From a virus: a stretch of DNA of 64,000 nucleotides. Below are positions 5,867-64,000 of this stretch, one piece after another. The stretch spans positions 1-64,000 of IMG/VR virus record IMGVR_UViG_3300009126_000404; one strand, given 5' to 3'. A program made the position numbers and the translations under genes. The notes beneath the pieces are model-generated. The model did not search any database. It was not told where the DNA came from and saw nothing but the letters and a program-made list of their open reading frames with translations. Position 1 is the first letter of the stretch, and each line of letters opens with the position of its first letter.

Positions 5867-6874
5867 ATGAATTGGCTAAAACAAATACACCATATGCAAA
5901 TTGATATTACAAGTTATTGTAACGCAAGGTGTGGTGCGTGTGCTAGAAACATAGCTGGAGGAAAAACACAGCCGTGGTTACAATTAAGTCACTTTGATAA
6001 ACATATTTGGTATCGTTTATTTACTGAAGATACTATTGATACAGAAATACTTAAATTAAAACTTAATGGAAATTGGGGAGACCCAGGTATGCATCCTGAT
6101 TTACCTGAATTAATTTCTGTGTTTGGTAAATGTAATCCAGAAGCATCTGTACAAATTTGTACTAATGGTGGAACACATAATGAAGAATGGTGGGGTAGTT
6201 TAGGCAATGCATTATCTAGAGATACAAAATATCATGCTGTTGATTTTGCTATTGATGGACTAGAAGACACACATTTAATATATAGGCGCTCAACAGATTA
6301 TAATAAAATATTAGCAAATGCAATATCTTTTGCTAAAGCAGGTGGAAAAAGTCGTTGGATAATGACATTGTTTGATTATAATATACATCAAATAGATGAA
6401 GCAATTGAGGTAGCAAGAAAGAATAACTTTACGTCAATTAAATTTAGATATAGTCATACAAAAAATGCATTAGTTGAAACACCAACAGAAGAATACAGGT
6501 TACATACTGATAAAGCAGATAAAGTTACATTGCCAGACACAGTATATTTTAATAATTCAGTAATGTTTTCTGAAAACTCAACAAAACATACAACTGATAG
6601 TAAATGCCCATGGTATAGAGATGAACGAATACAAATTGGGCCGTGGGGCAATGTGTGGCCATGTTGCTATATTGCAGATGTAATGGAAGGAATAACTGAG
6701 ATAAACCAACAAGAACAGTTAGAAAAAGAAATGCCTAATCAAGAATGGAACAATTTAACAAATCACTCATTAAATGACATACTTAGTCATAAATGGTTCA
6801 ATAGTACATTAAATAGTGCTGTAGAGCACGGTAAGTATGCTGTATGTATAAATAATTGTGAAATAACAACATGA
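5867..6874 (+). CDS. radical SAM protein with C-terminal SPASM/twitch-type domain
   Basis: CNARCGAC, GNWGDP, ICTNGG, FAIDGLE; C-terminal KCPW...VWPCCY...C..NC. Confidence 0.9.
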   Translation: MNWLKQIHHMQIDITSYCNARCGACARNIAGGKTQPWLQLSHFDKHIWYRLFTEDTIDTEILKLKLNGNWGDPGMHPDLPELISVFGKCNPEASVQICTNGGTHNEEWWGSLGNALSRDTKYHAVDFAIDGLEDTHLIYRRSTDYNKILANAISFAKAGGKSRWIMTLFDYNIHQIDEAIEVARKNNFTSIKFRYSHTKNALVETPTEEYRLHTDKADKVTLPDTVYFNNSVMFSENSTKHTTDSKCPWYRDERIQIGPWGNVWPCCYIADVMEGITEINQQEQLEKEMPNQEWNNLTNHSLNDILSHKWFNSTLNSAVEHGKYAVCINNCEITT

Positions 6875-7566
6875 ATGTAAATGACGCTATAAGAAAACGT
6901 AAATCAACACGTGCATTTTTAAATAAACAAGTGTATCCACATATTGTAATTAAAATACTAGAACAAGCAAAACGAGCACCAAGTGGCGATAATCATCAAC
7001 CTTGGGACGTTGTAGTACTTACTGGTAAAGCAAAAAACAACTTATGTATTAAGTTAGAAGAAGCATTTCGTTCAGGTAAACAACCTGTTATGGATTATGA
7101 ATACTATCCACAAGACAAAAAGTCTGAGAAAGATACTAAATGGTTTGGTAAGTATAAAGATAATAGAAAAGCATGTGGGATAGGGTTATACTCACAAATG
7201 GGTATTATTTCTAAAGGAATGCAAAAACAAAAAGACGACTTATATGCTAAAAACTACAGAGCTTTTGATGCACCCGTAATGCTATTATTCTTTATTGATA
7301 GAGAATTAGGGAAAGGTTCTTACGTAGACTATGGAATGTTTATACAATCTATTATGTTATTAGCAACAGAGAATGGACTAGCAACATGTTCACAAGGCTC
7401 GTTGGGTGAATATGCTGATATTATACGTGAAGAGTTGCCAAAGTACAAAGATAAGATAGTTTTATGTGGTATGAGTATGGGATATGAAGATCCATCAAAC
7501 CCAATTAATCAGTATAGAACTATGAGGCAAGACATAAACGAAATAGTAAAATATTATGACGAATAA
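6871..7566 (+). CDS. nitroreductase family protein
   Basis: AIRKRKSTRAF, RAPSGDNHQPW, AFDAPV, DYGMFIQSIML, GLATC, CGMSMGYED. Confidence 0.9.
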   Translation: MNVNDAIRKRKSTRAFLNKQVYPHIVIKILEQAKRAPSGDNHQPWDVVVLTGKAKNNLCIKLEEAFRSGKQPVMDYEYYPQDKKSEKDTKWFGKYKDNRKACGIGLYSQMGIISKGMQKQKDDLYAKNYRAFDAPVMLLFFIDRELGKGSYVDYGMFIQSIMLLATENGLATCSQGSLGEYADIIREELPKYKDKIVLCGMSMGYEDPSNPINQYRTMRQDINEIVKYYDE

Positions 7567-8158
7567 AGAACAAAAATGGCTCGATGAAGTATATGATAAA
7601 AATAATAGCGAGTTATATGACGAATGGGATAACTATCATGAACAAGTCATAGAAGGATTAGGATGGAAATGTCATACAATAGCGGCTAAATGGATTGCTG
7701 ATAACTTTCCAGAAGGAACCGAAGTTGCAGACATTGGATGTGGTAACGGTCAAGTGGGTATTGGATTAGCAGAACATGATTATAAAATTGATGGATATGA
7801 CTTAAATCTCAAAATGCTTGAAAGATTTATAGCAACAAACTATAGATCAATTAGTAAACATGACATTACTGAAAAAGCATTACCAAAGAAGTATAAATGT
7901 ATAACAGCAATAGGTGTATTAACAAAAGGTCATGTTAATTCTATTGCGGCAGAACATTTAGCAAACAGTTTAACAAACGACGGACTACTATTTTGTAGTA
8001 TGTCTAAGCACGATGGCGATTGGTTTTATGATGGTGGATGGAATGCACAATCATATTTAGATGTTGTAAATATTACACCAGTACACAGTTTAACCACCCC
8101 AGAAGGCATAAAAACGTATCATAATATGGTTATTTGGCGAAAGAAAGCAAGATCTTAG
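7556..8158 (+). CDS. class I SAM-dependent methyltransferase
   Basis: VADIGCGNG motif I, DGYDLN motif II, CITAIGVLTKGH. Confidence 0.8.
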   Translation: MTNKEQKWLDEVYDKNNSELYDEWDNYHEQVIEGLGWKCHTIAAKWIADNFPEGTEVADIGCGNGQVGIGLAEHDYKIDGYDLNLKMLERFIATNYRSISKHDITEKALPKKYKCITAIGVLTKGHVNSIAAEHLANSLTNDGLLFCSMSKHDGDWFYDGGWNAQSYLDVVNITPVHSLTTPEGIKTYHNMVIWRKKARS

Positions 8159-8187
8159 TTGACATCTTGGTAATAATGTATTATAAT
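8159..8187 (+). promoter_or_regulatory. perfect-consensus sigma70 promoter
   Basis: TTGACA (8159-8164), 17 bp, TATAAT (8182-8187). Confidence 0.85.
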
Positions 8188-8230
8188 AATAAAGAATTCG
8201 CAATAGATTTGCGATAGAAAAGGATATAAA

Positions 8231-8377: not shown

Positions 8378-8623
8378 ATGAATACAGGTAAAATAAAATG
8401 GTTCAATCCTACAAAAGGATATGGATTTATCGAAGTCGGCGGCGGTAGTAAGGATGTGTTTTTACATATTTCTGCATTACAAGAAGCTGGTATCGATACT
8501 ATTACAGAAGGTGATGAAGTATCTTTTGAAATAGGTGAAAATAGAGGTAAAAGTACCGCTATTAATGTTAAAAAAGTCGCGAGCGACAGTAATACGCCAG
8601 CGGGTAACCCGCATATTGGTTAA
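8378..8623 (+). CDS. cspA: cold-shock domain protein
   Basis: [15 protein letters not shown] (RNP1) and DVFLHIS (RNP2). Confidence 0.95.
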
Positions 8624-15294: not shown

Positions 15295-15999
15295 ATGTTA
15301 GATGTTTTCATGCTAACGTTCGGAGAACCAGAAGCAGATGATAATTTTAAAATACTACAAGAAAAAGCACCACATGCTAAACGCATAGACGGTGTTGAAG
15401 GATTACTTAACGCACATAAAGCCTGTGCTGAAGAATCACGCACAAGTTATTTTTATGTGTGTGACGCAGACGCAGTTATAACAGAAAACTTTGCATTTAA
15501 GTTTACACCAAGCGATAGACGATTGGCTTATCCAGGTGTAAAAGAAACAGAATGTGTATTTACATATCGTAGCCACAATCCTATTAATGATTTAGTGTAC
15601 GGCAATGGTGCATTAAAACTATTTCCTAAAAAGAATTTACTAGCAGTAAAAGAGTTTAAAGTAGATATGACTACAAGCATTGGAGCAATATTTAAGCCAA
15701 TGTTTGAAATTTCAAATATAACACAGTTTAATACAGACCCATTTAACACATGGCGAAGTGCATTTAGAGAATGTACTAAACTTTCAAGTAATATCATTGA
15801 CAATAATAAACAAATAGATGATGCATACAGATTGAAAGTATGGTGCGAACGTGGCGAGGACAGGCGTTACGGAGACTATGCAATACTAGGTGCTAACCAA
15901 GGCAGAGACTTTGGAGAGCATTATAAAAATAACACTAAAGCATTAAATAAGATTAATGATTGGGAATGGCTAAAGGAAAAGTTTAATGAAGCACTCTGA
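15295..15999 (+). CDS. GT-A-like glycosyltransferase
   Basis: FYVCDADAVI DxD motif, AHKACAE, YGNGALKLFPK, TWRSAFRECTKL. Confidence 0.6.
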   Translation: MLDVFMLTFGEPEADDNFKILQEKAPHAKRIDGVEGLLNAHKACAEESRTSYFYVCDADAVITENFAFKFTPSDRRLAYPGVKETECVFTYRSHNPINDLVYGNGALKLFPKKNLLAVKEFKVDMTTSIGAIFKPMFEISNITQFNTDPFNTWRSAFRECTKLSSNIIDNNKQIDDAYRLKVWCERGEDRRYGDYAILGANQGRDFGEHYKNNTKALNKINDWEWLKEKFNEAL

Positions 16000-16921
16000 A
16001 TTTACAAGTAAGTTTCATTGGTTGAATGGACTGAGCGAATACTTTCGGGCTACCGGACAAGAAGAAAAATACGAGCCAGTATTTAAAGCATTATATCATC
16101 AAAACTATTATCGTAAACGTGATATAATAATGAATATGATAGAAGGCAAATACGAAGGAATTGAAAAAGTTCCATATGAGTTGCGTAGAGCCTGGGTGAA
16201 CATGCTTTTAAATGAACATATGGATGATGTAGAAGTAAAAACAGAACTCATTACTAGTTTAATTGCAACAGTGGCAGATGATGATTTTGTTAATAGAATT
16301 TGTAGATTTATTGATTACTTTGTAGTTGATCATGCAACATCTTTATTACTTCCTGACTTAGGAGACTTTTTATCACGTGGACAAGTAAAGAGTAAAATTT
16401 GGTTAGCAACCGAACTTGCAAAATGTGTAGAAGGTAACTTAGGTAATGTAGTATTTTATGGTGGTTGGTATAATTTTGTAGCATACTTTTTATTCTCACA
16501 GTTTGAAGTAAATAAAATTTATACTGTTGATAACGATCCAAAAGTTATTCCTCCTACTGAATGTTTATACGAAAAAGAAGTTAGCGAAGGTAAATTCTTT
16601 GCTATTACACATGATGTTAACAAAATTAAATGGAATGGAAAGAGCATGATATATAATGCTCATCATACTGAACATGAAGAAAAGATTCATATGGTCATTA
16701 ATACAAGTTGCGAACATATGAATAATACTTGGTTTGAAAATTTACCAGAAGGAACGTTTGTAATACTACACACAAATGATTATTTTGATAATCCACAACA
16801 TAGTAATTGTTGTGAAGATATAGAAGAAGCTAAGTCTAAATATCCAATGCAGAGTATAATGTATGAAGGTAATTTAGACACTGAGCTTTATAATAGGTTT
16901 ATGCTAATCGGCATTAAATAA
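15986..16921 (+). CDS. putative class I SAM-dependent methyltransferase
   Basis: SRGQVKSKIWL, VFYGGWY Gly loop, YTVDND acidic motif, VINTSCEH. Confidence 0.55.
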   Translation: MKHSEFTSKFHWLNGLSEYFRATGQEEKYEPVFKALYHQNYYRKRDIIMNMIEGKYEGIEKVPYELRRAWVNMLLNEHMDDVEVKTELITSLIATVADDDFVNRICRFIDYFVVDHATSLLLPDLGDFLSRGQVKSKIWLATELAKCVEGNLGNVVFYGGWYNFVAYFLFSQFEVNKIYTVDNDPKVIPPTECLYEKEVSEGKFFAITHDVNKIKWNGKSMIYNAHHTEHEEKIHMVINTSCEHMNNTWFENLPEGTFVILHTNDYFDNPQHSNCCEDIEEAKSKYPMQSIMYEGNLDTELYNRFMLIGIK

Positions 16922-16926
16922 AACAT

Positions 16927-17166: not shown

Positions 17167-17167
17167 T

Positions 17168-17660: not shown

Positions 17661-17662
17661 AT

Positions 17663-17989: not shown

Positions 17990-18339
17990 TGGAACTATTA
18001 TTAACTAATATAATATATGTAGGCTTTAGATTATTAGTTACAGCACATATAGTAAAATTCTTTCATAAATATTTTCCATTTGGAATTGCAGTATTAATTG
18101 CCGCACAGGTTAGTTTTTTATATGACGGTGGAATATTTGCATACTTATTTCAAGCACAAGCATTGCCAGAAGCAATGGAAATACTACAAGCAAATATATT
18201 ATATACATTGCGAGTAGGAATAGCATGGTGGATTATTAAAATGCTATGGGATAAGCTAAATAATTATTACTTAGCAGTCTTTATTGGTGCTGAATTAACA
18301 TTTATAGTAGACTATTTTATATTTGATGGATTATATTAA
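17986..18339 (+). CDS. multi-pass membrane protein
   Basis: About four hydrophobic segments in 117 aa. Confidence 0.65.
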   Translation: MMELLLTNIIYVGFRLLVTAHIVKFFHKYFPFGIAVLIAAQVSFLYDGGIFAYLFQAQALPEAMEILQANILYTLRVGIAWWIIKMLWDKLNNYYLAVFIGAELTFIVDYFIFDGLY

Positions 18340-19433
18340 TGTACAATTATAAGCAAATAAACGAAGTTCATTTAGAAGTTACACAACGTTGTAATGCAAG
18401 TTGCCCTATGTGTGACCGTAATGAAAATGGTGGACCAGTTAATCAACATATCAGAGGAAATTTACAAGAATTAACACTTGATGATTGTATTGATATATTT
18501 CCAGCAGACTTTATAGCACAATTAAAAACAATGTATATGTGTGGTAACTTGGGCGACCCAATTAGTGCTAGAGATACATTAGAAATATTTCAATGGTTTA
18601 GAGATTGTAATCCTAATATGTGGTTAAGCATGAATACAAACGCAGGTGCTAGAGATGTAGAGTGGTGGGCTGATGTAGCAAAAGTAATAGGTAAAAATGG
18701 ATGTGTTATCTTTAGTGTAGATGGGCTTGAAGAAACTAATCATTTATATAGGCAAGGAGTTAAATGGGAGTACGTTGAACGTAACATGAAAGCATTTATT
18801 GCCGCTGGTGGCAGAGCTCGTTGGGACTATTTAATATTTGAACATAGTGAATGTGATGTTGAACGTGCTGAACAACTTGCTAAAGAATGGGGCGTTGAAC
18901 GTTTTATGAAAAAGAAAACAGGTCGCTTTGTTAGAGCAGACAGTACAGCTAAACAAACACACCAAGCAAAGAATCGTAAAGGTGCAGATATGCAAAAACT
19001 TGCTAAACCTAAAAAAGCAGAACATCAAAACCTTGCACTATTAAAACAAGAAGAGATTGAAAAAACGTATGGTAGTATGATGGACTATTATAATCAAGCA
19101 ACAATAACATGTAAAGTAGCAAAGAAAGACCTTAAAAGTATTTTTATAACAGCAGAAGGATTAGTTATGCCTTGTTGTTGGACAGCAGGTCGTATGTATA
19201 AATGGTGGCACACTGATCCTAAAGTGGAACAGATATGGGACTTTATAGACAGAGTAGGAGGCAAGAATGGAATTAGTGCTAAGATAAATACCATAAAGGG
19301 TGTCTTTGAAAGTGGCATTATGAAAGATATACAACGTAGCTGGACATTAAACAGCATTAAAGAAGGTAAATTGGGAGTTTGTGCTATGAAATGTGGCACT
19401 GAATTTGATCCATATGGGGAGCAGTTTAAATGA
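18339..19433 (+). CDS. radical SAM protein with C-terminal SPASM/twitch-type domain
   Basis: CNASCPMC, CGNLGDP, MNTNAG, FSVDGLE; C-terminal TCKV...VMPCCW...CAMKC. Confidence 0.9.
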   Translation: MYNYKQINEVHLEVTQRCNASCPMCDRNENGGPVNQHIRGNLQELTLDDCIDIFPADFIAQLKTMYMCGNLGDPISARDTLEIFQWFRDCNPNMWLSMNTNAGARDVEWWADVAKVIGKNGCVIFSVDGLEETNHLYRQGVKWEYVERNMKAFIAAGGRARWDYLIFEHSECDVERAEQLAKEWGVERFMKKKTGRFVRADSTAKQTHQAKNRKGADMQKLAKPKKAEHQNLALLKQEEIEKTYGSMMDYYNQATITCKVAKKDLKSIFITAEGLVMPCCWTAGRMYKWWHTDPKVEQIWDFIDRVGGKNGISAKINTIKGVFESGIMKDIQRSWTLNSIKEGKLGVCAMKCGTEFDPYGEQFK

Positions 19434-20689
19434 CAATGAGTTTAGATGACTTACCAACAAAAAGTTTTTGTATATTACCTTGGGTAAGTGCCAATATTGG
19501 CTCTGAAGGTGATGTAGTTCCTTGTTGCTTATGGCATGGTAAGAGTGCAAGATTTGCCAAAGAACATAATGTGAAACGAGCAATGGTTAGCGATGGATTA
19601 ACAAATGCTAGAAACAGTGAATATTTTCAAAAAATCAGACAAATGATGCTCGAAGGTAAAAGACCAAGCGGTTGTAATGTATGTTATAAAAATGAAGATA
19701 GCAAATTCCACAAAAATCACAAAGAGGCATACGGAAAAGAACATCTTAGAACTATACATCATAAAAGATTCGCACCTTGGTATAGATTTCATACGTATAA
19801 AAACGAACCAATGGCTATGAAATGGTTGGAGACGGGATTAAGCAACCTATGTAATATGGCATGTGTAATGTGTAACGGCGGCTCTAGTAGCATAATATAT
19901 AGTGCATTTAATCCTGGAAAAAGTATTCCTAAAGGATTTATTCAATCAATAGATAGTATAGATGAAGACTTAGAAGGATTAAAGTTACTAACACTCTTAG
20001 GTGGCGAGCCTATGATAGAAAAGAAACATGATACGTTCTTAGAAACGATTATAGAACAAAATAAAAACCCCAATACTTTAGAAATAGACTACCACACAAA
20101 TGGAAGTATACTTCCTAGTCAACGTGTAATTGAGCAATGGAAGAAAGTAAAACAAGTTAGAATTGTTTTCAGTATGGATAGTGTTGGCAAACATGTAAAA
20201 ATACAACGCCCTGGTAACTATGAATGGCAAGATATAGAAGATACTGTAGACAAGTACGTACAATTAGCAGAAAGTAATGCTAATATTATATTTTCAGTTA
20301 ATGTATTACTTACAGCATTAAACATAGGGTGCATAACAGAAACATGTGATTATCTTTATAGCAAATTAAAGAATTCAAAAACTGGCTGGATGCACACAAA
20401 TAGAATTGCACCCGGAATGGAATGGCATAGATATATTGATTATAGAAACTTGGGTAAAAAAACTAAACAAAGAATTAAAGACAAATGGAAAAAATGGGAA
20501 GATAGTAATCCGCCAGTTTTAGCTGACAAAGATCATGCAATATCTAGACTGTATCAAATAGCAAAAGTATCTATAAACGAAGAGGGAGACATGGATGAAC
20601 CACTTACAAAAGAACTTATGCTAAAAAAACATCCTCAGGCTAAATTATGGAAATTATATAAACAAGACTTAAAGGAATTAGATATATGA
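19430..20689 (+). CDS. radical SAM protein with N-terminal twitch-type domain
   Basis: N-terminal FCILPW...PCC...CNVC; CNMACVMC; LGGEP; YHTNGS. Confidence 0.88.
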   Translation: MTMSLDDLPTKSFCILPWVSANIGSEGDVVPCCLWHGKSARFAKEHNVKRAMVSDGLTNARNSEYFQKIRQMMLEGKRPSGCNVCYKNEDSKFHKNHKEAYGKEHLRTIHHKRFAPWYRFHTYKNEPMAMKWLETGLSNLCNMACVMCNGGSSSIIYSAFNPGKSIPKGFIQSIDSIDEDLEGLKLLTLLGGEPMIEKKHDTFLETIIEQNKNPNTLEIDYHTNGSILPSQRVIEQWKKVKQVRIVFSMDSVGKHVKIQRPGNYEWQDIEDTVDKYVQLAESNANIIFSVNVLLTALNIGCITETCDYLYSKLKNSKTGWMHTNRIAPGMEWHRYIDYRNLGKKTKQRIKDKWKKWEDSNPPVLADKDHAISRLYQIAKVSINEEGDMDEPLTKELMLKKHPQAKLWKLYKQDLKELDI

Positions 20690-21009
20690 TTGAGCTGTTT
20701 CTTAGTGCAATTCCAAATGTACTTTCTGCTATGTTTGTTGGAAGTATAGCAGGCGGACTAGTACAGGTATGTGAAAATGATATACCTAAACTTAAGAATC
20801 TTAAACCCAAACTATCAAAAGTTATGATTGAAAGAGAAGTATCAGAAGACATTCGAACTGCTTTTTGGGATTCATATGATAATATCTATAATGGACCTAA
20901 ACTTCCATCAGCCTGCGAGGAGGCTTTACAAGCAGTAGGTACATCAAAACAAGAAGTTATAGATGAAATTAGTCCAGAAAAAAGCACACATGAACAAAGA
21001 TTTAGATAA
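20686..21009 (+). CDS. hypothetical protein with hydrophobic N-terminus
   Basis: 107-aa ORF between radical SAM genes, ATGA-coupled. Confidence 0.55.
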   Translation: MIELFLSAIPNVLSAMFVGSIAGGLVQVCENDIPKLKNLKPKLSKVMIEREVSEDIRTAFWDSYDNIYNGPKLPSACEEALQAVGTSKQEVIDEISPEKSTHEQRFR

Positions 21010-22180
21010 TAAAAAACCAGCTTGTTATGTTCCATGGGTTACTCGATATGACTGGGGAAATGGAGATATAACTCCTTGCTGTGAGTTTGATCCTAATACG
21101 AAAATCAAAACAACAGAAAATATGTCATTAGAGGATAGCTTTAATCATCCCAAAATGAAAGCATTAAGAACACAATTATTAACTTGTGATAAAAATGATA
21201 TTGATGCCCTCCCGACTGGTTGCAACCAATGTAAAGTATTTGAAAAAGCAGGAATGAAGGACTCAATGAGGCTAGCCGTTACTGATGTAGTCGAAAGAGC
21301 TGAACAAAACTCATCATATAAATTTAACCCTGATGAATTTAAGTTGCTATGGTTAGATTATAGAGAGAGTAACCTTTGTAACTTTAGTTGCAAAATGTGT
21401 GGTGAGGATTTGAGCAGTACACACGCAAAGATACAAGGAAAATATGGCAAGACAGGTATAATAAAAAGTCCTCATAAATTACAAATGTACTTAGATAGAT
21501 TAGATGAAGTGAAATATGTTCAATTCTTAGGTGGTGAACCAGTATTAACTGATTCAATGTATATTATTCTAAAAGAAATAAAAAAGCGTAACCTACAGCA
21601 TCAGATTTGCATGAATATTACAACCAATGGTAGTTTACTGCATAAAGATAACGATAGTTTATTAGAATTATGTAAAGGATTTGATGCTGTACAAATTGCA
21701 ATAAGCATTGATTGTATGGGAGATCAACATAATTATTGGAGGCACAAAGGTACATGGAATATAGTATGGAAAAACACACGTGAAATAGAAAAATGGGTAC
21801 ACTCTCAAGACGGTGCAAATATGAAAATAAGAACTGCTATTGGTTGGCCAAATGCATATGCTGCCAGAAAGACATTTGATATATTTGCTGATAAGTTAGG
21901 CAATGGCAAAGTAATTCATGTATGGAATTTAGTTAATATTCCAAGAGGATTAAGTCTTACACAATTGCCTCAAGACAGATTAGATGATTTATCCGTTTGG
22001 TGGAAGGATTATCCAGATGTAGCAAAAATGTTTAAAAATACTATATCTAACCCTAATATAAGAGAATTAATGTGGGTAAAAAAAGATATATTTAAGAAAC
22101 ATGATGCATGGCATGGAAACAGTTTTGTAAAGGCCTTTCCTGAATTTGAAGATTTTTATAACAATATAGAAGATATGTAA
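20990..22180 (+). CDS. radical SAM protein with N-terminal twitch-type domain
   Basis: ACYVPW...PCC...CNQC; CNFSCKMC; LGGEP; ITTNGS. ATG 20990 chosen by alignment with the next paralog (ORF track starts at 20963). Confidence 0.88.
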   Translation: MNKDLDNKKPACYVPWVTRYDWGNGDITPCCEFDPNTKIKTTENMSLEDSFNHPKMKALRTQLLTCDKNDIDALPTGCNQCKVFEKAGMKDSMRLAVTDVVERAEQNSSYKFNPDEFKLLWLDYRESNLCNFSCKMCGEDLSSTHAKIQGKYGKTGIIKSPHKLQMYLDRLDEVKYVQFLGGEPVLTDSMYIILKEIKKRNLQHQICMNITTNGSLLHKDNDSLLELCKGFDAVQIAISIDCMGDQHNYWRHKGTWNIVWKNTREIEKWVHSQDGANMKIRTAIGWPNAYAARKTFDIFADKLGNGKVIHVWNLVNIPRGLSLTQLPQDRLDDLSVWWKDYPDVAKMFKNTISNPNIRELMWVKKDIFKKHDAWHGNSFVKAFPEFEDFYNNIEDM

Positions 22181-23343
22181 TGAATAATAAAAGACCAGCT
22201 TGTTATGCTCCATGGGTTACCACATATGAATGGTCTAATGGAGATATAACTCCTTGTTGTGAATGGGATAGAGGAGAAGATGTTGACCACATCATGCATT
22301 CAAAAAAGCATCTATCATTTGAAGATAGATTTAATCATTCTAACTCACAAGCACTGCGAAAGAAAATGATGGAAGGACCTATTACAAATATACCTGGGTG
22401 TACCCATTGTGTTAATAATGAAAGATTAGGAGCATTCTCACATAGGCAATATCTTGATAAGTTAGTAGAAGATAGACAACCAATAGATCTAAATAAATTT
22501 ATGTTAGTACATATGGATTATAGAGAAAGTAATCTGTGTAATTTTAGTTGTAAAATGTGTGGACACGATTTAAGTAGCACACATGCTGTAATAAGAAATT
22601 GGATTGATGGTGATAACAAACAATTTCCAAAAGATGGAGTAAGAAAAAATCAACATCATTTACAAATGTATTTAGATAGATTAGATGAAGTTAAAATAAT
22701 ACATTTCTTAGGTGGCGAGCCTATGTTAATGGACTCAATGTATATCATTTTAGAAGAAATAAAAAAACGCGATATAGGAAAAAATATAAATGTACGTATT
22801 ACAACTAACGGTAGTTTATTACATAGAGAAAAAGATAATCTATTTGAATATTTAGAAGGAATAAAGTACAAAGCATTTTTTATAAGTATAGAGGCTATAG
22901 GCGATCAACATAACTATTGGCGACATAAAGGCACATGGAATATTGTATGGAAAAATACTCTTGAGATAAACAAATATGTAAAAGAGAATAAACGTAATAC
23001 AGGAATAGGAATTAGAACTGTATTATCATGGCCAACTGCATATGCGGCAAAAAAAGCATTTGATTTAATGAAAGACAATGGTATAGATCACGGTTATACC
23101 TTTATCATGGATCCAAAAGGATTAAGAATATCACAGTTACCACAGCATCACCTTGATGCTTTAGTTGAACATTGGAAAGAATATCCAGAAATACAGGATG
23201 CATTCTTAAATACTAAATCAAGAATTAATTGGGCAGAACTTAGCGAACAAAAAAAGACAATGATGCAACATGATGCATGGCATAAAAATAGTTTCGTAGA
23301 TGCATTTCCTGAATTTGAAGAGTTTTATAACAAGATCCCTTAA
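22180..23343 (+). CDS. radical SAM protein with N-terminal twitch-type domain (tandem paralog)
   Basis: ACYAPW...PCC...CTHC; DYRESNLCNFSCKMC; shares GDQHNYWRHKGTWNIVWKNT with the previous gene. Confidence 0.88.
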   Translation: MNNKRPACYAPWVTTYEWSNGDITPCCEWDRGEDVDHIMHSKKHLSFEDRFNHSNSQALRKKMMEGPITNIPGCTHCVNNERLGAFSHRQYLDKLVEDRQPIDLNKFMLVHMDYRESNLCNFSCKMCGHDLSSTHAVIRNWIDGDNKQFPKDGVRKNQHHLQMYLDRLDEVKIIHFLGGEPMLMDSMYIILEEIKKRDIGKNINVRITTNGSLLHREKDNLFEYLEGIKYKAFFISIEAIGDQHNYWRHKGTWNIVWKNTLEINKYVKENKRNTGIGIRTVLSWPTAYAAKKAFDLMKDNGIDHGYTFIMDPKGLRISQLPQHHLDALVEHWKEYPEIQDAFLNTKSRINWAELSEQKKTMMQHDAWHKNSFVDAFPEFEEFYNKIP

Positions 23344-41037: not shown

Positions 41038-41239
41038 TATATACAGTGTTTTTAATGTACATACAAGAAAAGTTATCGCAGAAGGGTTTGATAAAAAAGC
41101 AGATGCTAAAGCCAAACGTGATGAACTTTGTAAAGACTCACATGACAAATGGGCTAAGAAAGTTAAAGATGATAAGGATTTAAGTAAACCATTTCCTTAT
41201 ATCGTAGTAAAAGGAACGGAACACCCAAGAGTACTATGA
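41030..41239 (+). CDS. small hypothetical protein
   Basis: AAGGAG RBS; 69 aa ending VVKGTEHPR. Confidence 0.6.
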   Translation: MANIYSVFNVHTRKVIAEGFDKKADAKAKRDELCKDSHDKWAKKVKDDKDLSKPFPYIVVKGTEHPRVL

Positions 41240-42333
41240 AGCAAGGCAATTATATATTTACAAGCGAAAGTGTAAGTGCAGGACATCCTGACAAAGTAGC
41301 AGACCAAATTAGTGATGCATTAGTTGATGCAGGACTTAAAAATGGTGATGAAACAACACGAGTAGCGGTAGAAACATTAGTAACTACTAATATGGTAACA
41401 GTAGCAGGCGAAGTAAAAAACTTTAATGTTACTAAAGATCAAGTAGACGACATTATTCGTAACAAAGTTAAAGAAATTGGTTATGAACAAGATGGCTTCC
41501 ATTGGGAGAAATTAAAAATTCATAATTATATACATTCACAGAGCAAAGATATTGCTCTAGGAACAGATAGTTTTGGTGCAGGAGATCAAGGAATTATGTT
41601 TGGTTATGCTTGTAATGATAACGAAGCAATGATGCCAGCACCTATTTACTATGCACATAAGATTTTAAAAGAATTAGACAATAAGCGTCGAGGTGGATAT
41701 GAATATATGTTACCAGATGCAAAATCACAAATAAGTATTCAATATGAAGGCGGCGAGCCTAAACGTGTTGATCAAATAGTAGTATCACATCAACATACAA
41801 AAGGATTTGAACATAGTATTAAAATGCCGTGCAGAAATGCGGCTGAAAAAGTATTAGGAGATTTAGTAGATGAATCAACAAATTGGTATATTAACCCTAC
41901 AGGAATATTCGAAACTGGAGGACCAGATGGTGACACAGGCCTTACTGGCAGAAAAATTATTGTGGATACTTATGGTGGGTATGCTCCTCACGGTGGCGGT
42001 GCATTTAGTGGTAAAGATCCTACAAAAGTAGATAGAAGTGCGGCGTACATAGCACGTTGGTTAGCAAAGAATGTTGTAGCTGATGAAATGGCAGACTGGT
42101 GTAGTATCCAATTAAGTTATGCAATTGGTGTAAAAGAACCTACAAGCATTTATGTAGACTCAAATGGGCATAATAGAAGTATTCAAAAGTTTATTGAGGA
42201 AAATATAGACTTAACACCAAAAGGAATCATTGACAGATTTGGATTATTTAAGTATAATGAGTATAGTAAGAATTGTGTATATGGACACTTTGGCGACAAA
42301 GATGTACCATGGGAAAGGATAGGATGGAAATGA
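41236..42333 (+). CDS. metK: S-adenosylmethionine synthetase
   Basis: FTSESVSAGHPDKVADQISD, GAGDQG, GGPDGDTGLTGRKIIVDTYGG, GKDPTKVDRS. Confidence 0.97.
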   Translation: MKQGNYIFTSESVSAGHPDKVADQISDALVDAGLKNGDETTRVAVETLVTTNMVTVAGEVKNFNVTKDQVDDIIRNKVKEIGYEQDGFHWEKLKIHNYIHSQSKDIALGTDSFGAGDQGIMFGYACNDNEAMMPAPIYYAHKILKELDNKRRGGYEYMLPDAKSQISIQYEGGEPKRVDQIVVSHQHTKGFEHSIKMPCRNAAEKVLGDLVDESTNWYINPTGIFETGGPDGDTGLTGRKIIVDTYGGYAPHGGGAFSGKDPTKVDRSAAYIARWLAKNVVADEMADWCSIQLSYAIGVKEPTSIYVDSNGHNRSIQKFIEENIDLTPKGIIDRFGLFKYNEYSKNCVYGHFGDKDVPWERIGWK

Positions 42334-49040: not shown

Positions 49041-49846
49041 GCAGAATAGATTATGAATTATTCAGCGAAGAAGATTTTAATGCATGTTTGAGCTCTATTC
49101 GAGAAAAATACAGTTGCACTTTTAATTTTATTCCAAACGTAAGTATTTCAGAAGTACACAATAAATTTCCAGATGCTAGTAGGTCAGGCTCAGCATTTAA
49201 TACTGGTGTACCTGGTGGTTTTTATAAACTTATTAACAACTTAATTGACAGAATAATAGACAACGAAAATACATATTTGCAAATAAGTTATCCTCCTATT
49301 GATTTTAAAAAGCAAGATGCACTTAGAAATATATTAGATTTGTATATTATGTACAATAGTTATAACAAAGAATCATTAATGCCAATTGTAATAACACGAA
49401 CAAATGAATGGACTCTTATACATCCAGGAAATACAAGAGTAGCAATGGCACAATATAAAAAGTTTAAAGATTGTACTGTTGATGTAGTTTTAATAGATCA
49501 CTCTACTACACCCGTTAAAGACAATATAAGTTTTAATAACTTTCCTTATGGTATTATGCTAACTGAATGGCTGAATGATGAACATAGAAAAATAGAATTA
49601 TTTGCACCAAAAGAATTACATGAAATATTTTCTTACGGATTACTCAACGAATATCAAATAAAATATATAAATGACACTTTATTTTTAAATGATATTAAAG
49701 TAGTAAAACTTCATCATGCAGATAAGCATGTTGAATTCTTTAGTGGAGTATATAAAGATCTTAGAACAGAAGGATGTATGCCTGAAGATATTCAGCGAAG
49801 AATAGAAAACTCGCTAAATATTGTTAATGCAAATAAAAAGACTTAG
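49037..49846 (+). CDS. hypothetical protein, possible ParB/Srx-like segment
   Basis: PIVI...LIHPGNTRVAM loosely resembles the ParB-N GxxR motif. Confidence 0.5.
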   Translation: MSRIDYELFSEEDFNACLSSIREKYSCTFNFIPNVSISEVHNKFPDASRSGSAFNTGVPGGFYKLINNLIDRIIDNENTYLQISYPPIDFKKQDALRNILDLYIMYNSYNKESLMPIVITRTNEWTLIHPGNTRVAMAQYKKFKDCTVDVVLIDHSTTPVKDNISFNNFPYGIMLTEWLNDEHRKIELFAPKELHEIFSYGLLNEYQIKYINDTLFLNDIKVVKLHHADKHVEFFSGVYKDLRTEGCMPEDIQRRIENSLNIVNANKKT

Positions 49847-50798
49847 TTTAGAAATATTCGGCGGATGTAATTTCTCCTGTAAAATGTGTCCACAAGGCAA
49901 AGATAACAACGGCCGACAACAAGATTTCTTAAAATTACTTCCATTTAAACTATTTGAAAAAATATTAGATGATGCCTCCCAATATGGAGTACAAGTAGTA
50001 AACATAGAAGGTAGCGGAGAAGCAACATTAAATAAACATATTGTAAAGTATATCGAAGCAGTTAAAAAAAGAGATATGCTACCTTTACTTTATACAAATG
50101 GGTTACTTGTAAAAGGTAAATTAATGCATGATATGTTTAATGCAGGATTATATATTTGTAGATTCAGTGATATTGGGTATGATGCAGAAACATATAAGAA
50201 CTGGATGCAAATAGATGCATTTAACACTATTATAAAACATGCAAACGAAGCACTTAATTATGTACAACAACAAAACATTGATGCAGTCATAAGCAGTTAT
50301 CATTTAATAATTGACAATGATCGTACTGAATGGGAAATAGAACAGTATAAAAAGAATTTTATTGAACCAGCAGGTACAGAAGCAGAAATATGGAAAATGC
50401 ATAATTGGGCAGGACAAATTGATAGTAATACCAGACAAGGTACAGTAAGTTCATGTGGTAGACCTTTTAGTCCAGACCTAACAATACGTGCAGGCGGATT
50501 AAATGGAAAAAATGGAGCAGTTGTTCCGTGCTGTCAAACAATGGGAGCACCAAAAGAAAGTAAAAGTGTATTAGGTCATTTGCAAGACAATACAATTGAA
50601 GAAATATTTAATGGTGAAGAATATAATAACCTTAGAGAAGCACATACAACTGGTAATTATGAACAAGTACCTTATTGTTTAGATTGTGACTTCTTAATAC
50701 ATGATCCGAATGTGTTAGTATATACAAATAATCCGGAACGTGTTAAAATAGGAAACATGAAGGCGACAGATATCAGCCTACGAGATCTAAGGTTTTAG
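49827..50798 (+). CDS. radical SAM protein with C-terminal SPASM/twitch-type domain
   Basis: CNFSCKMC, GSGEA, YTNG; C-terminal SCGRPF...VPCCQ...YCLDC. Confidence 0.9.
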   Translation: MQIKRLSLEIFGGCNFSCKMCPQGKDNNGRQQDFLKLLPFKLFEKILDDASQYGVQVVNIEGSGEATLNKHIVKYIEAVKKRDMLPLLYTNGLLVKGKLMHDMFNAGLYICRFSDIGYDAETYKNWMQIDAFNTIIKHANEALNYVQQQNIDAVISSYHLIIDNDRTEWEIEQYKKNFIEPAGTEAEIWKMHNWAGQIDSNTRQGTVSSCGRPFSPDLTIRAGGLNGKNGAVVPCCQTMGAPKESKSVLGHLQDNTIEEIFNGEEYNNLREAHTTGNYEQVPYCLDCDFLIHDPNVLVYTNNPERVKIGNMKATDISLRDLRF

Positions 50799-52563: not shown

Positions 52564-52631
52564 AGAAAGTAGCAGAAATGCCAAAGAAACAAAAGAAATC
52601 AATTTTACCATTAGAAGAAGGAAGTAAAAAT

Positions 52632-57281: not shown

Positions 57282-57284
57282 ATT

Positions 57285-59639: not shown

Positions 59640-61061
59640 ATGGCAGAAAATAAATTACCAAGTGATACTTTTTGTATATTACCATGGATTCATTTAAGCA
59701 CTAGACCTGACGGAAGTATGAGAGTATGTTGTACTGCAAATGCAAGTGCTGTAGGAGCCACAAATGATAAACTATATGGTGGTAGAGTAGGAATTGTTAA
59801 AACTGATGATGGCATTCCAGCAAATCTTAATAACAGCGACTTAAACAGTTCATGGAATAATAGTTATATGCGGAATGTTCGTAACCAAATGTTAGCTGGT
59901 GGAAAACCTGCTAGTTGTTTAAAATGTTATAAAGAAGAAGCCGCAGGACATAGATCAAAAAGACAATGGGAAACAGATTATTGGATAAGAGATGGAATTG
60001 ATGTAGACGAACTTGTTAAAGAAACATACGAAGATGGGTCAACAGATAGCAAATTACGTTATATTGATATCCGTATGGGTACTAAATGCCAGCTAGGTTG
60101 TATTATGTGTAGTCCACATGATTCAAGTGGTTGGGTTAAAGATTGGAATGCATTATATCCACAAATTACAAATGAGTCATTAAAAGAAACAATGACCTGG
60201 GAAGATAAAGGTAAGCAGTTTGGTGCTAATTATAACTGGCATAAAAATAATCCTACATTTTGGACACAGTTTTACGCACAAATTCCTTACATTAGACAAT
60301 TATACTTTGCAGGTGGTGAATCAACTGTTATTGAAGAACATTACACAATACTATCTAAAGTTATTGAAATGGGTTATGCAGATCAAATTGAAGTACGTTA
60401 TAACTCAAATGGTGTTGAACTTCCTGATCGTTTACTAGAACTATGGTCACACTTCCAAAAAGTACGTTTCCATTATAGTATTGACAGCATTGGTGCAATG
60501 AATGATTATATTCGTTACCCAAGTGAATGGGAACATCAACTTGAGATGTTCAAACGTTTAGACACACAAACATCTAACAATGTAGAAGTTACAATTGCAT
60601 GTGCTGTAAATGCCTTAAACATTCATTACATTCCAGATTTCCTAAAATGGAAATTACAACATGGATTTAATAAAACAAATATGTGGCCATTTGGTGCAGG
60701 AGGTATTAACTACCACTTTGTATACTGGCCAGGACACTTAAACGTTAAGATACTTCCTAACGATTTCCTAGACAAAACAGAAGCCAAGTATGAAGAATTT
60801 ATTAAATGGTGGAAAGAGAATTGGGAACTAGGTGTTCCAAGTTGGCATAAAGGTAAAGTAGATTACCAAACATGGGAAAATGCAAGTTATGGTATTAAAC
60901 GTTTAAGAGGAATGATTAGTTTTGCTCGTAGTGAAGACTGGAGCAGACGACTTCCAGAATTTAGAGAATATATTAATAAACTAGACAAATTGCGTGGAAC
61001 AGATTTCCGTGCAACATTTCCTGATATGGCATACTTGTTAGACGAACCTGATGAAAAATAA
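59640..61061 (+). CDS. radical SAM protein with N-terminal twitch-type domain
   Basis: FCILPW...VCC...CLKC; CQLGCIMC; FAGGE; YNSNG. Confidence 0.9.
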   Translation: MAENKLPSDTFCILPWIHLSTRPDGSMRVCCTANASAVGATNDKLYGGRVGIVKTDDGIPANLNNSDLNSSWNNSYMRNVRNQMLAGGKPASCLKCYKEEAAGHRSKRQWETDYWIRDGIDVDELVKETYEDGSTDSKLRYIDIRMGTKCQLGCIMCSPHDSSGWVKDWNALYPQITNESLKETMTWEDKGKQFGANYNWHKNNPTFWTQFYAQIPYIRQLYFAGGESTVIEEHYTILSKVIEMGYADQIEVRYNSNGVELPDRLLELWSHFQKVRFHYSIDSIGAMNDYIRYPSEWEHQLEMFKRLDTQTSNNVEVTIACAVNALNIHYIPDFLKWKLQHGFNKTNMWPFGAGGINYHFVYWPGHLNVKILPNDFLDKTEAKYEEFIKWWKENWELGVPSWHKGKVDYQTWENASYGIKRLRGMISFARSEDWSRRLPEFREYINKLDKLRGTDFRATFPDMAYLLDEPDEK

Positions 61062-62295
61062 TAAAACAAACACACAATCTCTAGAAGATTTACCAACGAA
61101 AAGTTATTGCGTATTACCATGGACTGCAACAGCAATAGGAGCAGAAGGCCTAGTCGTGCCTTGTTGTAGATGGTTTTCTCAAGAAGATAGATGGATAGAT
61201 GATAATCCACCAAATATTGCAGACGGTCTTACAAACGCCAGAAACAGTGAATTTTTCCAAACAATAAGGCAACAAATGATTGACGGAGAACACCCAAGAG
61301 GTTGTAAGAGGTGTTGGGACGAAGAAGAAAAAGATGTAGGTAATAGAGCAATGCATAGAGTAGGTCAACAACAAAGATTTTCCGATGAGTCACCATATGG
61401 TAGAATAATCGAAATTACTGATAAGCCAGCCAAACTACGACATTTAGAAACTGGCATAAGTAGCCTTTGTAACTTTTCATGTGTAATGTGTATTCCGGAA
61501 AACAGTAGTATAATACATAGTATTCTAAAGCCAGGTAAAAAAATACCCAAAGGGTTTCACAAAGACAATGAAAACATTGATGATGATTTATCTGAATTAC
61601 AATTATTAAAATTAGTAGGTGGCGAACCTATGATTGAAGCGAAACACGATGAACTATTAGAAAAAATTATTGAATTAAATAATGACCCTGGAAATTTAGA
61701 AATACAGTATCATACTAATGTGAGTGTATTTCCAAGCAACAGAGTAATTAATTGTTGGAAGAAATTGAAAAAAGTTGAACTAGTGTTAAGTATAGATGGC
61801 ATTGGAAAATTAGCCACATTACAAAGACCAGGCAATTATAAGTGGCAAGATATAGAAGATACAATAAATAAATATATACAATTAACTAGTGAAGTTAACA
61901 TTGTATTTTCTACCAACGTTGTTCTTACTGCATTAAACATAGGACAGATAATAAATATATGTGAGTGGCTATATAATAAAGTAGAAAAACATACTTCAAT
62001 GGGTTTTGCTTTCCTACAACCAATTGATAAACAACCTTACTCAACTTATATAGATTTTAGAAATTTAAGCAAAGAAACAAAAGAACGAATAAAAAAAGAA
62101 TGGGCAGATTGGGAAGCCACTAATCCACCTGTATTAAACACTGTTTTAAAAGACCTACTAATAGACGCAAAAGGCTATATAGACGAAAAAGGAATTTTAA
62201 ACGAACCATTAACAAAAGAACTAATGTTAGAAAAACATCCTAATGCTAGATTATGGAAACACTTTAACGAAGATTTAACAAATTTGGAGATATAA
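61051..62295 (+). CDS. radical SAM protein with N-terminal twitch-type domain (paralog of 19430)
   Basis: YCVLPW...PCC...CKRC; CNFSCVMC; VGGEP. Confidence 0.88.
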   Translation: MKNNKTNTQSLEDLPTKSYCVLPWTATAIGAEGLVVPCCRWFSQEDRWIDDNPPNIADGLTNARNSEFFQTIRQQMIDGEHPRGCKRCWDEEEKDVGNRAMHRVGQQQRFSDESPYGRIIEITDKPAKLRHLETGISSLCNFSCVMCIPENSSIIHSILKPGKKIPKGFHKDNENIDDDLSELQLLKLVGGEPMIEAKHDELLEKIIELNNDPGNLEIQYHTNVSVFPSNRVINCWKKLKKVELVLSIDGIGKLATLQRPGNYKWQDIEDTINKYIQLTSEVNIVFSTNVVLTALNIGQIINICEWLYNKVEKHTSMGFAFLQPIDKQPYSTYIDFRNLSKETKERIKKEWADWEATNPPVLNTVLKDLLIDAKGYIDEKGILNEPLTKELMLEKHPNARLWKHFNEDLTNLEI

Positions 62296-62871
62296 ATGAA
62301 ATATTTACTAGTTGCACTTGAAACAGAGGTGCCAAACATTGAATTACCAGATGATTATACATTAATGATTACAGGCGTAGGTAAAGTAAATGCTACTGTA
62401 ATGGCTACTTTTGCAGCTCTCAACAAAGACTGCGAATGTATTATTAATTATGGAACAGCAGGAACTTTTAATCCTGATTTAGTTGGCAAACTATACAGAA
62501 TTAGCACAGTCAAACAGCGAGATATGGATGCTCGTCCAACATCACCATTAGGAATTACACCATACGAAAACACAAAATTTAATGGTGACTTGCAAATTTA
62601 CAAAGGAAGTAAATTTACATTAAGCACAGGCGATAACTTTGTAAAAGAAAAGCCTGAAATAAAAAGTGATTTCGTAGACATGGAAGGTTATGCTATCGCA
62701 AAAACAGCAGGTATGTTTAACAAGCCATGTATAATGCTAAAATATGCAAGTGACTTAGCTGATGAACAATCGCCAGAAGAATGGCAAGCCAATCAAGCCA
62801 AAGGAAAAGATATGTTTCTAGCATGGCTGTCAGATATGGAAAAGGAAATTCAAAAACTAAAAGATGAGTAA
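62296..62871 (+). CDS. mtnN: MTA/SAH nucleosidase (Pfs/PNP_UDP family)
   Basis: ITGVGKVNA, INYGTAG, LSTGDNF, VDMEGYAIA, KYASDLAD. Confidence 0.8.
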   Translation: MKYLLVALETEVPNIELPDDYTLMITGVGKVNATVMATFAALNKDCECIINYGTAGTFNPDLVGKLYRISTVKQRDMDARPTSPLGITPYENTKFNGDLQIYKGSKFTLSTGDNFVKEKPEIKSDFVDMEGYAIAKTAGMFNKPCIMLKYASDLADEQSPEEWQANQAKGKDMFLAWLSDMEKEIQKLKDE

Positions 62872-64000
62872 AAACGATTCAGGCTTTTGTGCATTACCAT
62901 TTGTGCAATATAGCACCTATAACGGAGGCCGTTTTAGGCTATGTTGTATGGCTAAGGAACCTAAAGAACTTGTTAATCAAGAAGAACTAGGCATAGATGG
63001 TACATGGAATCATAATTATATAAAAGATGTAAGACGTAGAATGACTGCTGGTGAGAAACTACCAGAATGTATTGAATGTCATCATTTAGAACGTAACGAC
63101 ATAATGAGCTCACGCCAATGGGAAAACAAAGTGTGGGCAGATGTTATTGACGATGTAGTAGCCAAGGCATCCGTTAATGATTGGGAGATTGATCAACCCT
63201 TACAATTTGATTTTAGACTTGGTAATTTATGCAATTTGCAGTGTCAAATGTGTAACAAAGAAGCATCTCACTTAGTGAGTGTGGAACGTGCGGCAATGGT
63301 ACAAAGCGGACTCGGAGCGAACCATCCTGATTGGGACGGCATGATTGCAGACAAAAAAGAAGCATTACTTCAACCAGGAATAGAATGGGAAAGTTTCGAA
63401 AGAATGCTACCATATGCTCGTAAGATAAAGTTAATAGGTGGTGAACCAACAGTAGCGGCTGATATGTTCAAGTTGTTAGATATTGCTACTGAAACTGGAC
63501 ATGCAGATCATATAGAATTAAGTTTTTATACAAACATTACTAATATGCAAGACAAATGGCTTAACCAGTTAGCCAAGTTTGAAAAAGTAATTGTTAATTG
63601 CTCATTGGAAGGAATGGGAGATATGAATGACTATCTAAGACCCCCTTCCAAATGGGCTTCTGTTTGGAATAACTTTGATAAGTTAGTAAAGTTTTCTGAT
63701 ACTAAAGAAGGTAAACGTATAAAGCCTCGGGTTACTACAGTAAACCAATTAACTAATGCATTACATACAACAAAATTTTGGAAGTATATGCATGATTACC
63801 AAATGACTAGTAATAGAGGTATTGGAATGAGTTCCAATCAATTAGTGGAGCCAAACTATTATAGTATGGCATATGCTCCTGATTGGTTAAAATGGGAACA
63901 ACGTGAGCAAATTTTAGAATTCCTCGACAGTATTAAAGATAGTCCACATTTTAAGCAGTACGAAGAACCTCTTATGGAAATTGTTAATTTTAGTCTTGAT
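62864..64000 (+). CDS. radical SAM protein with N-terminal twitch-type domain, 3'-truncated by the window end
   Basis: Not in the ORF track (no stop); read by hand: MSKNDSGFCALPF...LCC...CIEC, LGNLCNLQCQMC, LIGGEP. Confidence 0.88.
   Translation, partial: MSKNDSGFCALPFVQYSTYNGGRFRLCCMAKEPKELVNQEELGIDGTWNHNYIKDVRRRMTAGEKLPECIECHHLERNDIMSSRQWENKVWADVIDDVVAKASVNDWEIDQPLQFDFRLGNLCNLQCQMCNKEASHLVSVERAAMVQSGLGANHPDWDGMIADKKEALLQPGIEWESFERMLPYARKIKLIGGEPTVAADMFKLLDIATETGHADHIELSFYTNITNMQDKWLNQLAKFEKVIVNCSLEGMGDMNDYLRPPSKWASVWNNFDKLVKFSDTKEGKRIKPRVTTVNQLTNALHTTKFWKYMHDYQMTSNRGIGMSSNQLVEPNYYSMAYAPDWLKWEQREQILEFLDSIKDSPHFKQYEEPLMEIVNFSLD

Follow-up and report, generated by a model that had tools for sequence, protein, structure and literature searches.

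A 183,842-bp IMG/VR virus record, IMGVR_UViG_3300009126_000404, carries 26 genes for canonical radical S-adenosylmethionine (SAM) enzymes and one QueE-like gene, 27 in total, which together span some 10,150 codons, roughly 17% of its length. We analysed its bases 1-64,000 (hereafter the window), about the first third of the record. A sequence-only reading of this window had counted at least 11 radical SAM genes and thereby understated their number. Eighteen of the genes belong to a family with an N-terminal twitch domain (N-twitch), and for this main family we tentatively predict, as the leading hypothesis, a function in tailoring sugars or glycoconjugates. This is favoured because a conserved core set of radical SAM genes includes a glycosyltransferase-like partner of the GT-A type, its cellular relatives lie in GT2/PMT gene neighbourhoods, and further sugar genes are located in the window.

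The radical SAM genes were identified by a six-frame scan of the window for the motif CxxxCxxC and by hidden Markov model (HMM) searches with PF04055 and NF033640. Exactly ten open reading frames (ORFs) contain CxxxCxxC, once each and all on the plus strand (Table 1; genes are named here by their start positions). These are the same ten genes as recognised in the sequence-only reading, with starts that were either identical or shifted by less than 30 bases (20963 instead of 20990, and 49821 instead of 49827). All ten were matched by PF04055, nine of them above the gathering score of 29.5, and because each motif falls within a radical SAM HMM match, the pattern is not due to chance. The tenth, 59640, reaches 26.2 bits on PF04055, yet is the highest-scoring window gene on NF033640 (N_Twi_rSAM). 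The curated cut-off of the latter model is 170 bits for the whole protein and was passed by six of the ten genes, while 5867, 18339, 37551 and 49821 stayed at 26-46 bits. This matches the six genes counted before as having an N-terminal Cys domain, and NF033640, the family named there, turned out to be the correct one. The four described as having a C-terminal or split domain correspond to 5867, 18339, 49821 and the pair 37551+38113. Across the whole record, we found 26 ORFs with an intact CxxxCxxC, 25 matches to PF04055 and 18 genes above the NF033640 cut-off. The Fe-S ligands are intact in every copy examined; a loss of ligands in most copies was thus not observed.

Table 1 Radical SAM genes and associated features in the window, ordered by position.
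Feature	Position	Strand	Basis and remarks
Rubredoxin	336..497	+	PF00301, 76 bits; CxxCG...CPxCG motif
Radical SAM, C-terminal twitch/SPASM-like domain	5867..6874	+	PF04055 34.6 bits, SPASM 19 bits; Cys 247, 266, 267, 327, 331
SAM-dependent methyltransferase	7556..8158	+	PF13489, 34.5 bits
GT-A-fold glycosyltransferase-like protein (predicted), conserved partner of the radical SAM trio	15295..15999	+	AlphaFold2 (AF2) model, predicted local distance difference test (pLDDT) 93.4
Methyltransferase-like protein, conserved partner	15986..16921	+	Atlas lead, 0.95 to cluster; Methyltransf_31 in 21% of members
Radical SAM, C-terminal twitch-like Cys pattern, 18339-type	18339..19433	+	PF04055 29.8 bits
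N-twitch radical SAM (NF033640)	19430..20689	+	219 bits; 50% identical to 61051
N-twitch radical SAM (NF033640)	20963..22180	+	209 bits; 50% identical to 22180
N-twitch radical SAM (NF033640)	22180..23343	+	231 bits
Radical SAM core only, 210 amino acids	37551..38183	+	PF04055 37 bits; directly after QueD/PTPS gene (36978)
Stand-alone twitch-like Cys domain, 125 amino acids	38113..38490	+	C-x17-CC-x57-CxxxC read from translation; no Pfam match
QueE-like radical SAM	39772..40671	+	QueE NCBIfams 32-44 bits, below cut-offs of 200-300
SAM synthetase MetK	41236..42333	+	PF00438, PF02772, PF02773 at 114-193 bits (114, 119, 193)
Radical SAM, C-terminal SPASM domain, singleton lineage	49821..50798	+	SPASM 41.5 bits, PF04055 34.6 bits; barely related to other copies
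Archetypal N-twitch radical SAM, 59640-type	59640..61061	+	NF033640 413 bits; AF2 pLDDT 91.3
N-twitch radical SAM (NF033640)	61051..62295	+	223 bits
Methylthioadenosine/S-adenosylhomocysteine (MTA/SAH)-nucleosidase-like protein (PNP_UDP_1)	62296..62871	+	PF01048 55 bits
N-twitch radical SAM (NF033640)	62864..64000, continuing to contig 64126	+	267 bits (window part), 287 bits (whole gene)

The six window genes and all 18 contig genes assigned to NF033640 share a Cys-rich N-terminal twitch domain followed by the CxxxCxxC core. In the six window proteins, the N-terminus reads C-x17-CC...CxxC ahead of the core, and Pfam sees this domain as a weak SPASM match at residues 12-97. Within the aligned N-twitch sequences, C12, C93 and C96 are invariant and C30/C31 are at least 90% conserved, and the GGE SAM-binding motif (G225, G226, E227) is invariant in 91 aligned sequences. 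A simple regular expression for GGE gave no match in 5867, 18339, 37551 and 49821. Three of these, 5867, 18339 and 49821, possess a C-terminal twitch-like pattern, C-x18/24-CC...CxxC, while the split between the 37551 core and the twitch-like ORF 38113 is kept in the relatives L030 and L068. The seven-Cys SPASM pattern with two auxiliary clusters (CxxCxxxxxCxxxC type) was not found, as there are only four to five conserved Cys residues, a number that fits a twitch domain with one cluster. Another stand-alone twitch/SPASM-like Cys pattern occurs in a 109-amino-acid ORF without Pfam match between two N-twitch genes at contig 83229-83558 (L001:19229-19558), which may pair with the core-only radical SAM protein of 238 amino acids at 81343.

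The AlphaFold model of 59640 is confident, and its structural matches include BlsE (Z 11.6), CteB (11.2), SkfB (11.1), viperin (11.0) and anSME (10.7). With the solved twitch/SPASM enzymes (BlsE, BtrN-type, MoaA, viperin, anSME, CteB, SkfB, SuiB) it shares the partial TIM-barrel core and an auxiliary [4Fe-4S]-binding Cys domain at Z 10.4-11.6. Unlike in these enzymes, the auxiliary domain is placed before the core, and the identity is 11-16%. Fold searches with this model returned only generic radical SAM matches, in which sugar, nucleotide and peptide enzymes were tied.

The copies are diverged from each other. Pairwise identities among the radical SAM paralogs are 22-50%, with only two pairs at 50%, and each paralog has orthologues in related phages. 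We calculated a tree from the 18 N-twitch copies, 68 environmental representatives and 90 cellular homologues (FastTree; deep nodes are approximate). In this tree the 18 copies require 13 label changes, at least nine of which are forced by well-supported branches. Together with the low identities, this indicates that the record holds many old subfamilies rather than the products of a recent burst.

On 478 IMG/VR contigs and at 66 loci in records from cellular genomes we found relatives of 59640; the cellular matches with 55-63% identity are nearly all from Bdellovibrionota. Related contigs from other metagenomes contain 21 (138 kb), 18 (110 kb), 16 (127 kb) and 13 (109 kb) PF04055 matches. High counts are therefore shared with related uncultured phages (13-21 per 109-138 kb), but in none of them has a function been assigned. 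A complete relative of 457 kb has ten NF033640 genes and a complete relative of 364 kb has two. Comparison of the gene order showed conserved anchors with a varying number of radical SAM cassettes in between. Among 50,697 GenBank phage records, only two contain a 59640-type relative, in a single copy each, and a tblastn search of GenBank phages with the 84852-type radical SAM protein gave no match; the N-twitch array is not present in any cultured GenBank phage. At the level of proteins, a profile of the paralogs matched 8,801 cluster representatives (50% identity clusters) among 1.84 billion proteins at a maximum e-value of 1e-30, tandem double-domain fusions included. No informative names were found among the relatives listed from the protein collection, and we found no literature citing NF033640 and no tested member.

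The evidence for a role in glycoconjugate tailoring starts from a core set of five genes: the radical SAM genes of the 59640-type (N-twitch), 84852-type and 18339-type, and the 15295-type (230 amino acids) and 15986-type (310 amino acids) genes. The complete set recurs in the distant phages L054, L062, L063 and L042. In Bdellovibrionota loci, the three radical SAM genes recur together with the 15295-type and often also the 15986-type gene. The 18339-type orthologues (42-61% identity) are located beside the 59640-type gene in phages as well as in Bdellovibrionota. In one closed Bdellovibrionales chromosome, the core set lies beside the ribosomal-protein/SecY/adk operon, which identifies it as a cellular locus and not a prophage.

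The 15295 protein lacks a Pfam match. The top Foldseek matches of its model in the PDB are all GT-A proteins, CgT, RmlT, SunS, WrtF and PBCV-1 A64R (E about 5e-4, template-modelling (TM) scores 0.35-0.45). In its DxD motif, D59 is invariant and D57 nearly so in 34 homologues. Based on the model, we consider 15295 with moderate confidence to be glycosyltransferase-like with a GT-A fold. A fusion (Rosetta-stone) check of its domain yielded partners without a Pfam family. The second partner, 15986, has no Pfam or NCBIfam match, and the 15986-type co-occurs with the radical SAM trio in phages and Bdellovibrionota.

The cellular neighbourhoods point in the same direction. In the cultured Bdellovibrio sp. 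HCB2-146, the orthologue is surrounded by four genes of the GT2 type as well as genes for an acetyltransferase and an S74 fibre protein. A Bacteriovoracaceae chromosome contains ten consecutive radical SAM genes flanked by GT2 genes and a PMT_2 gene, and in Mangrovivirga a PMT gene adjoins the orthologue. The sugar genes within the window encode a GT1 protein, an NDP-sugar epimerase/dehydratase, a UDP-glucose dehydrogenase and an alginate-lyase-like protein. Considered together, what surrounds these genes in phages and in Bdellovibrionota speaks for glycans or glycoproteins as substrates rather than for DNA.

Several points weigh against glycoconjugate tailoring. The GT-A assignment of 15295 depends on a predicted structure with moderate Foldseek scores, the whole phage contig showed no match to Pfam GT2, and the evidence from gene neighbourhoods stems from a few cellular loci rather than a statistical survey. 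The fold of 59640 does not choose a substrate class, since sugar and nucleoside enzymes tie with peptide maturases among its matches. Other points hint at peptides. The fusion check showed that N-twitch proteins are joined either to a second N-twitch copy or to TPR repeats, and TPR repeats bind proteins or peptides. In the relative L067, about 20-25 tandem small ORFs resembling precursors of ribosomally synthesised peptides that are modified after translation (RiPPs) abut the 59640-type orthologue. It is therefore conceivable, if somewhat unlikely, that the twitch enzymes cross-link or epimerise peptides or proteins of phage or host, with one site or substrate per paralog. This would also agree with CteB, SkfB, SuiB, anSME, ChlB and EpeE being among the closest solved folds to the 59640 model, with weak NCBIfam matches to the peptide maturases PapB, CcpM and YhhB, with the peptide glycosyltransferases SunS/ThuS and ppGalNAcT among the GT-A look-alikes of 15295, and with the S8 and HtrA-like proteases encoded in the window. 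On the other side, a PqqD/RRE domain (PF05402) was not matched anywhere on the contig, and screens for Gly-rich ORFs and for paralog arrays found no small-ORF array on the contig itself, although single unrepeated precursors would escape such screens. Apart from high-GC artefacts, none was found among the other 148 loci screened either, and the universally conserved partners are glycosyltransferase-like and methyltransferase-like proteins, not peptides.

Regarding the array itself, the small ORFs of L067 (IMGVR_UViG_3300021979_000001, 457 kb) are located at L067:173-7578, directly upstream of the 59640-type orthologue, and are 54-110 amino acids long. They share the leader MNISIKLNYIK(S/A)WSHHDG, behind which come Gly-rich cores that vary (GYG/GDG/GNG) and often terminate in GCE or GCD. 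Other reading frames are open in these repeats, too. A small-ORF family in L140 was rejected as a high-GC artefact. As to the fusions, many environmental proteins of ~800 amino acids in our representative library (P0123-P0151) consist of two complete N-twitch radical SAM units in tandem, and other environmental N-twitch proteins, of 1,100-1,470 amino acids, add TPR repeats.

Two further substrate classes were considered. The synthesis of a small molecule during infection, such as an aminated or guanidino metabolite, an osmolyte or an antibiotic-like product, appears improbable to us. It is suggested by an array at 64-86 kb of the contig, where a homologue with 24-27% identity to the 'glycine amidinotransferase' of Campylobacter phage CP220 and Synechococcus phage S-SCSM2R is encoded together with aminotransferase-like, Asp/Arg hydroxylase and ABM-like proteins, and by two TauD, AMP-binding-like, nitroreductase, OpuAC/permease and TctA transporter genes in the window. 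However, these tailoring genes are variable and missing from the minimal core of the 364-kb phage and from several Bdellovibrionota loci, and 18 diverged paralogs exceed what known small-molecule routes use. Hypermodification of DNA or nucleotides, with the radical SAM enzymes building or tailoring modified bases that protect the phage DNA, is very improbable as an explanation for the family. Radical SAM enzymes reportedly take part in thymidine hypermodification, according to one paper. The phage has a T4-type polymerase, and the window encodes GTP cyclohydrolase I, QueD/PTPS, the QueE-like radical SAM protein, a phosphoribosyltransferase and thymidine kinase. Moreover, the split pair 37551/38113 adjoins QueD, and the tied best folds include three enzymes with nucleotide or nucleoside substrates, viperin, MoaA and BlsE. 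Against this, the core set is found among GT2/PMT genes and by housekeeping operons in Bdellovibrionota chromosomes. Modification of DNA is probably limited to the QueE-like gene and perhaps 37551/38113.

If glycoconjugate tailoring is the function of the main family, the core set would attach a sugar to an acceptor, and the core radical SAM enzymes would abstract hydrogen atoms, thereby editing the sugar or the attachment site by oxidation, epimerisation, or C-C or C-methyl chemistry. The variable cassettes, consisting of radical SAM genes with amidinotransferase, aminotransferase, 2-oxoglutarate oxygenase and SDR genes, would diversify the product, which would probably be a glycan or glycoprotein on the surface of either the virion or the infected cell. 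Separate pathways would account for the other radical SAM enzymes: the QueE-like one would help to make 7-deazaguanine, and 5867 would work within the TauD/ligase/transporter operon. A glycopeptide or glycoprotein as the target would reconcile the glycan with the peptide evidence. More speculatively, and with considerable doubt, the N-twitch family might comprise a dozen or more undescribed types of radical reactions, shuffled as cassettes by giant phages and predatory Bdellovibrionota for a hypervariable surface glycan or glycopeptide chemistry. This would then serve as an arms-race device, for which the phage supplies SAM, Fe-S assembly and reductants itself and so becomes independent of the particular host.

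The sequence-only reading had placed all these genes in a single programme. This is unlikely in view of at least 9-13 old lineages and at least four unrelated gene contexts. The first context is a transporter/TauD/ligase operon at 724-8158 with OpuAC, a permease, two TauD, an AMP-binding-like protein, a nitroreductase, the methyltransferase and radical SAM gene 5867. The second is the GT-A/methyltransferase/radical SAM block at 15295-23343, and the third, at about 29-41 kb, contains genes for deazapurines and for sugars. The fourth begins at 58 kb and runs into the 64-86 kb array, whose accessory genes encode the amidinotransferase homologue (contig 65040; 24% identical over 94% of the length to the CP220 gene), the aminotransferase-like protein, the Asp/Arg hydroxylase and the ABM-like protein. 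In view of these contexts and the proposed separate pathways, the genes probably form a toolkit, not one pathway.

The idea of a self-sustained system, in contrast, gained support from outside the window. MetK was reported before and is unambiguous, with all three S-AdoMet synthetase domains, and the rubredoxin at 336 is canonical as well. The same record additionally encodes an ISC-type set for Fe-S assembly, whose members are an IscA-type carrier, an Nfu domain, a 7Fe-type ferredoxin, IscU (173 bits) and a class-V aminotransferase/cysteine desulfurase (IscS, 286 bits). Their genes are located on the minus strand at contig 96553-99622, 155203-155619 and 178200-179414 (L002:12553-15622, L005:11203-11619 and L006:14200-15414), and the desulfurase gene adjoins radical SAM gene 177126. 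Rubredoxin and ferredoxin are possible electron carriers and reductants for the radical SAM enzymes.

The product of 62296 had been named Pfs. It is indeed MTAN-like, with DMEGYA and SDLAD aligning to the catalytic VDME and SD motifs of solved MTANs, but it does not reach the equivalog cut-offs (PRK05584, 62 versus 169 bits; TIGR01704, 38.7 versus 73.8 bits). Its best NCBIfam match is NF004168 'nucleosidase' (97.5 bits, cut-off 129). In 28 of 80 related phage loci, a nucleosidase gene lies within +/-10 kb of the 59640-type gene, and it is directly adjacent where the gene order was inspected. A plausible prediction is that 62296 is a clean-up enzyme. Alternatively, it could remove adenine from the adenosylated product of a neighbouring radical SAM enzyme, in the way that HpnG acts after HpnH and MqnB after MqnE. 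The position of the gene between two N-twitch genes, its recurrence near the 59640-type gene, the scores below the MTAN equivalog cut-offs and weak matches to futalosine hydrolase (43 bits) and HpnG (32 bits) would fit this possibility. Still, we consider it unlikely, because the best matches are MTAN-type nucleosidases with the MTAN catalytic motifs kept, because 27 radical SAM enzymes make the removal of 5'-deoxyadenosine an obvious need, and because a linked nucleosidase copy is absent from the Bdellovibrionota clusters.

The gene at 39772, previously called QueE, resembles QueE in its QGEG, CDTY and GGEP motifs and in having FolE and QueD nearby. Its matches to QueE models comprise only the N-terminal 34 residues and one C-terminal piece, and no Pfam family including PF04055 was matched. 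In the cluster loop, spaced C-x3-C-x50-C, an insert of 50 residues separates the second Cys from the third, whereas the spacing in the E. coli-type QueE is Cx14CxxC, so that the position of the insert differs. The ends of the protein are QueE-like, but with all QueE cut-offs missed and with this insert, we describe it as no more than QueE-like. At least three methyltransferases had been claimed for the window; of these, 7556 is a firm assignment and 48288 a weak one, and 15986 is methyltransferase-like solely by an atlas lead.

The record has a CheckV completeness of 51% and is a fragment, about half, of what is roughly a 360-kb genome of an uncultured aquatic phage. Phage markers on the record are a T4-type DNA polymerase (phrog_262, 656 bits), a tRNA nucleotidyltransferase and a tail-fibre-like protein. 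A search of the contig for the Gp23 capsid family gave no match, but the control search was likewise empty everywhere. Eight tRNA genes lie in the second half of the contig, and ARAGORN predicted a permuted (two-piece) tmRNA at contig 154779-155209 on the minus strand (L005:10779-11209) with the tag ANNNYEPEMAMAA. The permuted tmRNA and the tRNAs are a possible clue to the host. The window is packed with genes at a GC content of about 34%, all on the plus strand except for a few short or nested minus-strand ORFs. A megablast search with 24 kb of the window against GenBank phages gave no match.

Further genes were noticed in the window. At 44007-45452 lies a gene for a protein of the flavin-dependent tryptophan-halogenase family (204 bits) with a fused C-terminal WYL_2 domain, which is unusual in a phage. 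Genes at 724-2603 and 9198-10637 encode an OpuAC-type betaine-binding protein, an ABC permease and a TctA tricarboxylate transporter subunit, and a cold-shock protein is encoded at 8378-8623. An AAA ATPase gene followed by a gene for a DUF2201 metallopeptidase/VWA-like protein (52578-54940) forms a pair that is kept near the radical SAM block in 21-34 of 80 related loci.

Radical SAM enzymes perform chemically difficult C-H functionalisations, and a family of about 8,800 clusters without a tested member represents a large blind spot in enzymology. That a 184-kb stretch devotes 17% of its length to such enzymes, and carries its own SAM, Fe-S and redox parts, implies strong selection for the product as well as a heavy iron cost. 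Because the core set is present in a cultured Bdellovibrio strain, the question is open to genetics without first isolating a phage.

Regarding known systems, the hopanoid side-chain route proceeds through HpnH, HpnG, HpnI and HpnJ. The same types of parts are found side by side here: a radical SAM enzyme, a PNP_UDP_1 nucleosidase, a GT-A-type glycosyltransferase, another radical SAM enzyme and an aminotransferase. The likeness is an analogy of logic only, with the HpnG and HpnH models far below their cut-offs. NF033640 is a catalogue entry, which supplies a name but no function. The Campylobacter phages CP220 and CPt10 possess a radical SAM gene together with the 'glycine amidinotransferase', the homologue of which is a variable accessory here and is located beyond the window.

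There are also two reports on marine phages. Nishimura et al. 2017 described TARA_ERS488813_N000010, a T4-like marine genome of 183 kb with 12 radical SAM genes, an A-type Fe-S carrier, cas4, grx and paaD, a set that was read as Fe-S metabolism (PMC5332604). Zaragoza-Solas et al. 2020 found that radical SAM cassettes in a variable 'host recognition cluster' distinguish close pelagimyophages (PMC7029224). In common with those phages, which are T4-like and marine, the present one has many radical SAM genes, Fe-S assembly genes (ATC/IscU) and cassettes that differ between close relatives. In both papers, the radical SAM genes are mentioned in a sentence or two and are neither classified nor explained, whereas in the present record 26-27 radical SAM genes within 184 kb are accompanied by MetK, a nucleosidase, IscS and redox carriers. 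Phages with multiple radical SAM genes have thus been glimpsed in the literature but never explained. The novelty lies in the extreme number of genes, in the completeness of the support kit and in a conserved core that the phage has in common with a culturable bacterium.

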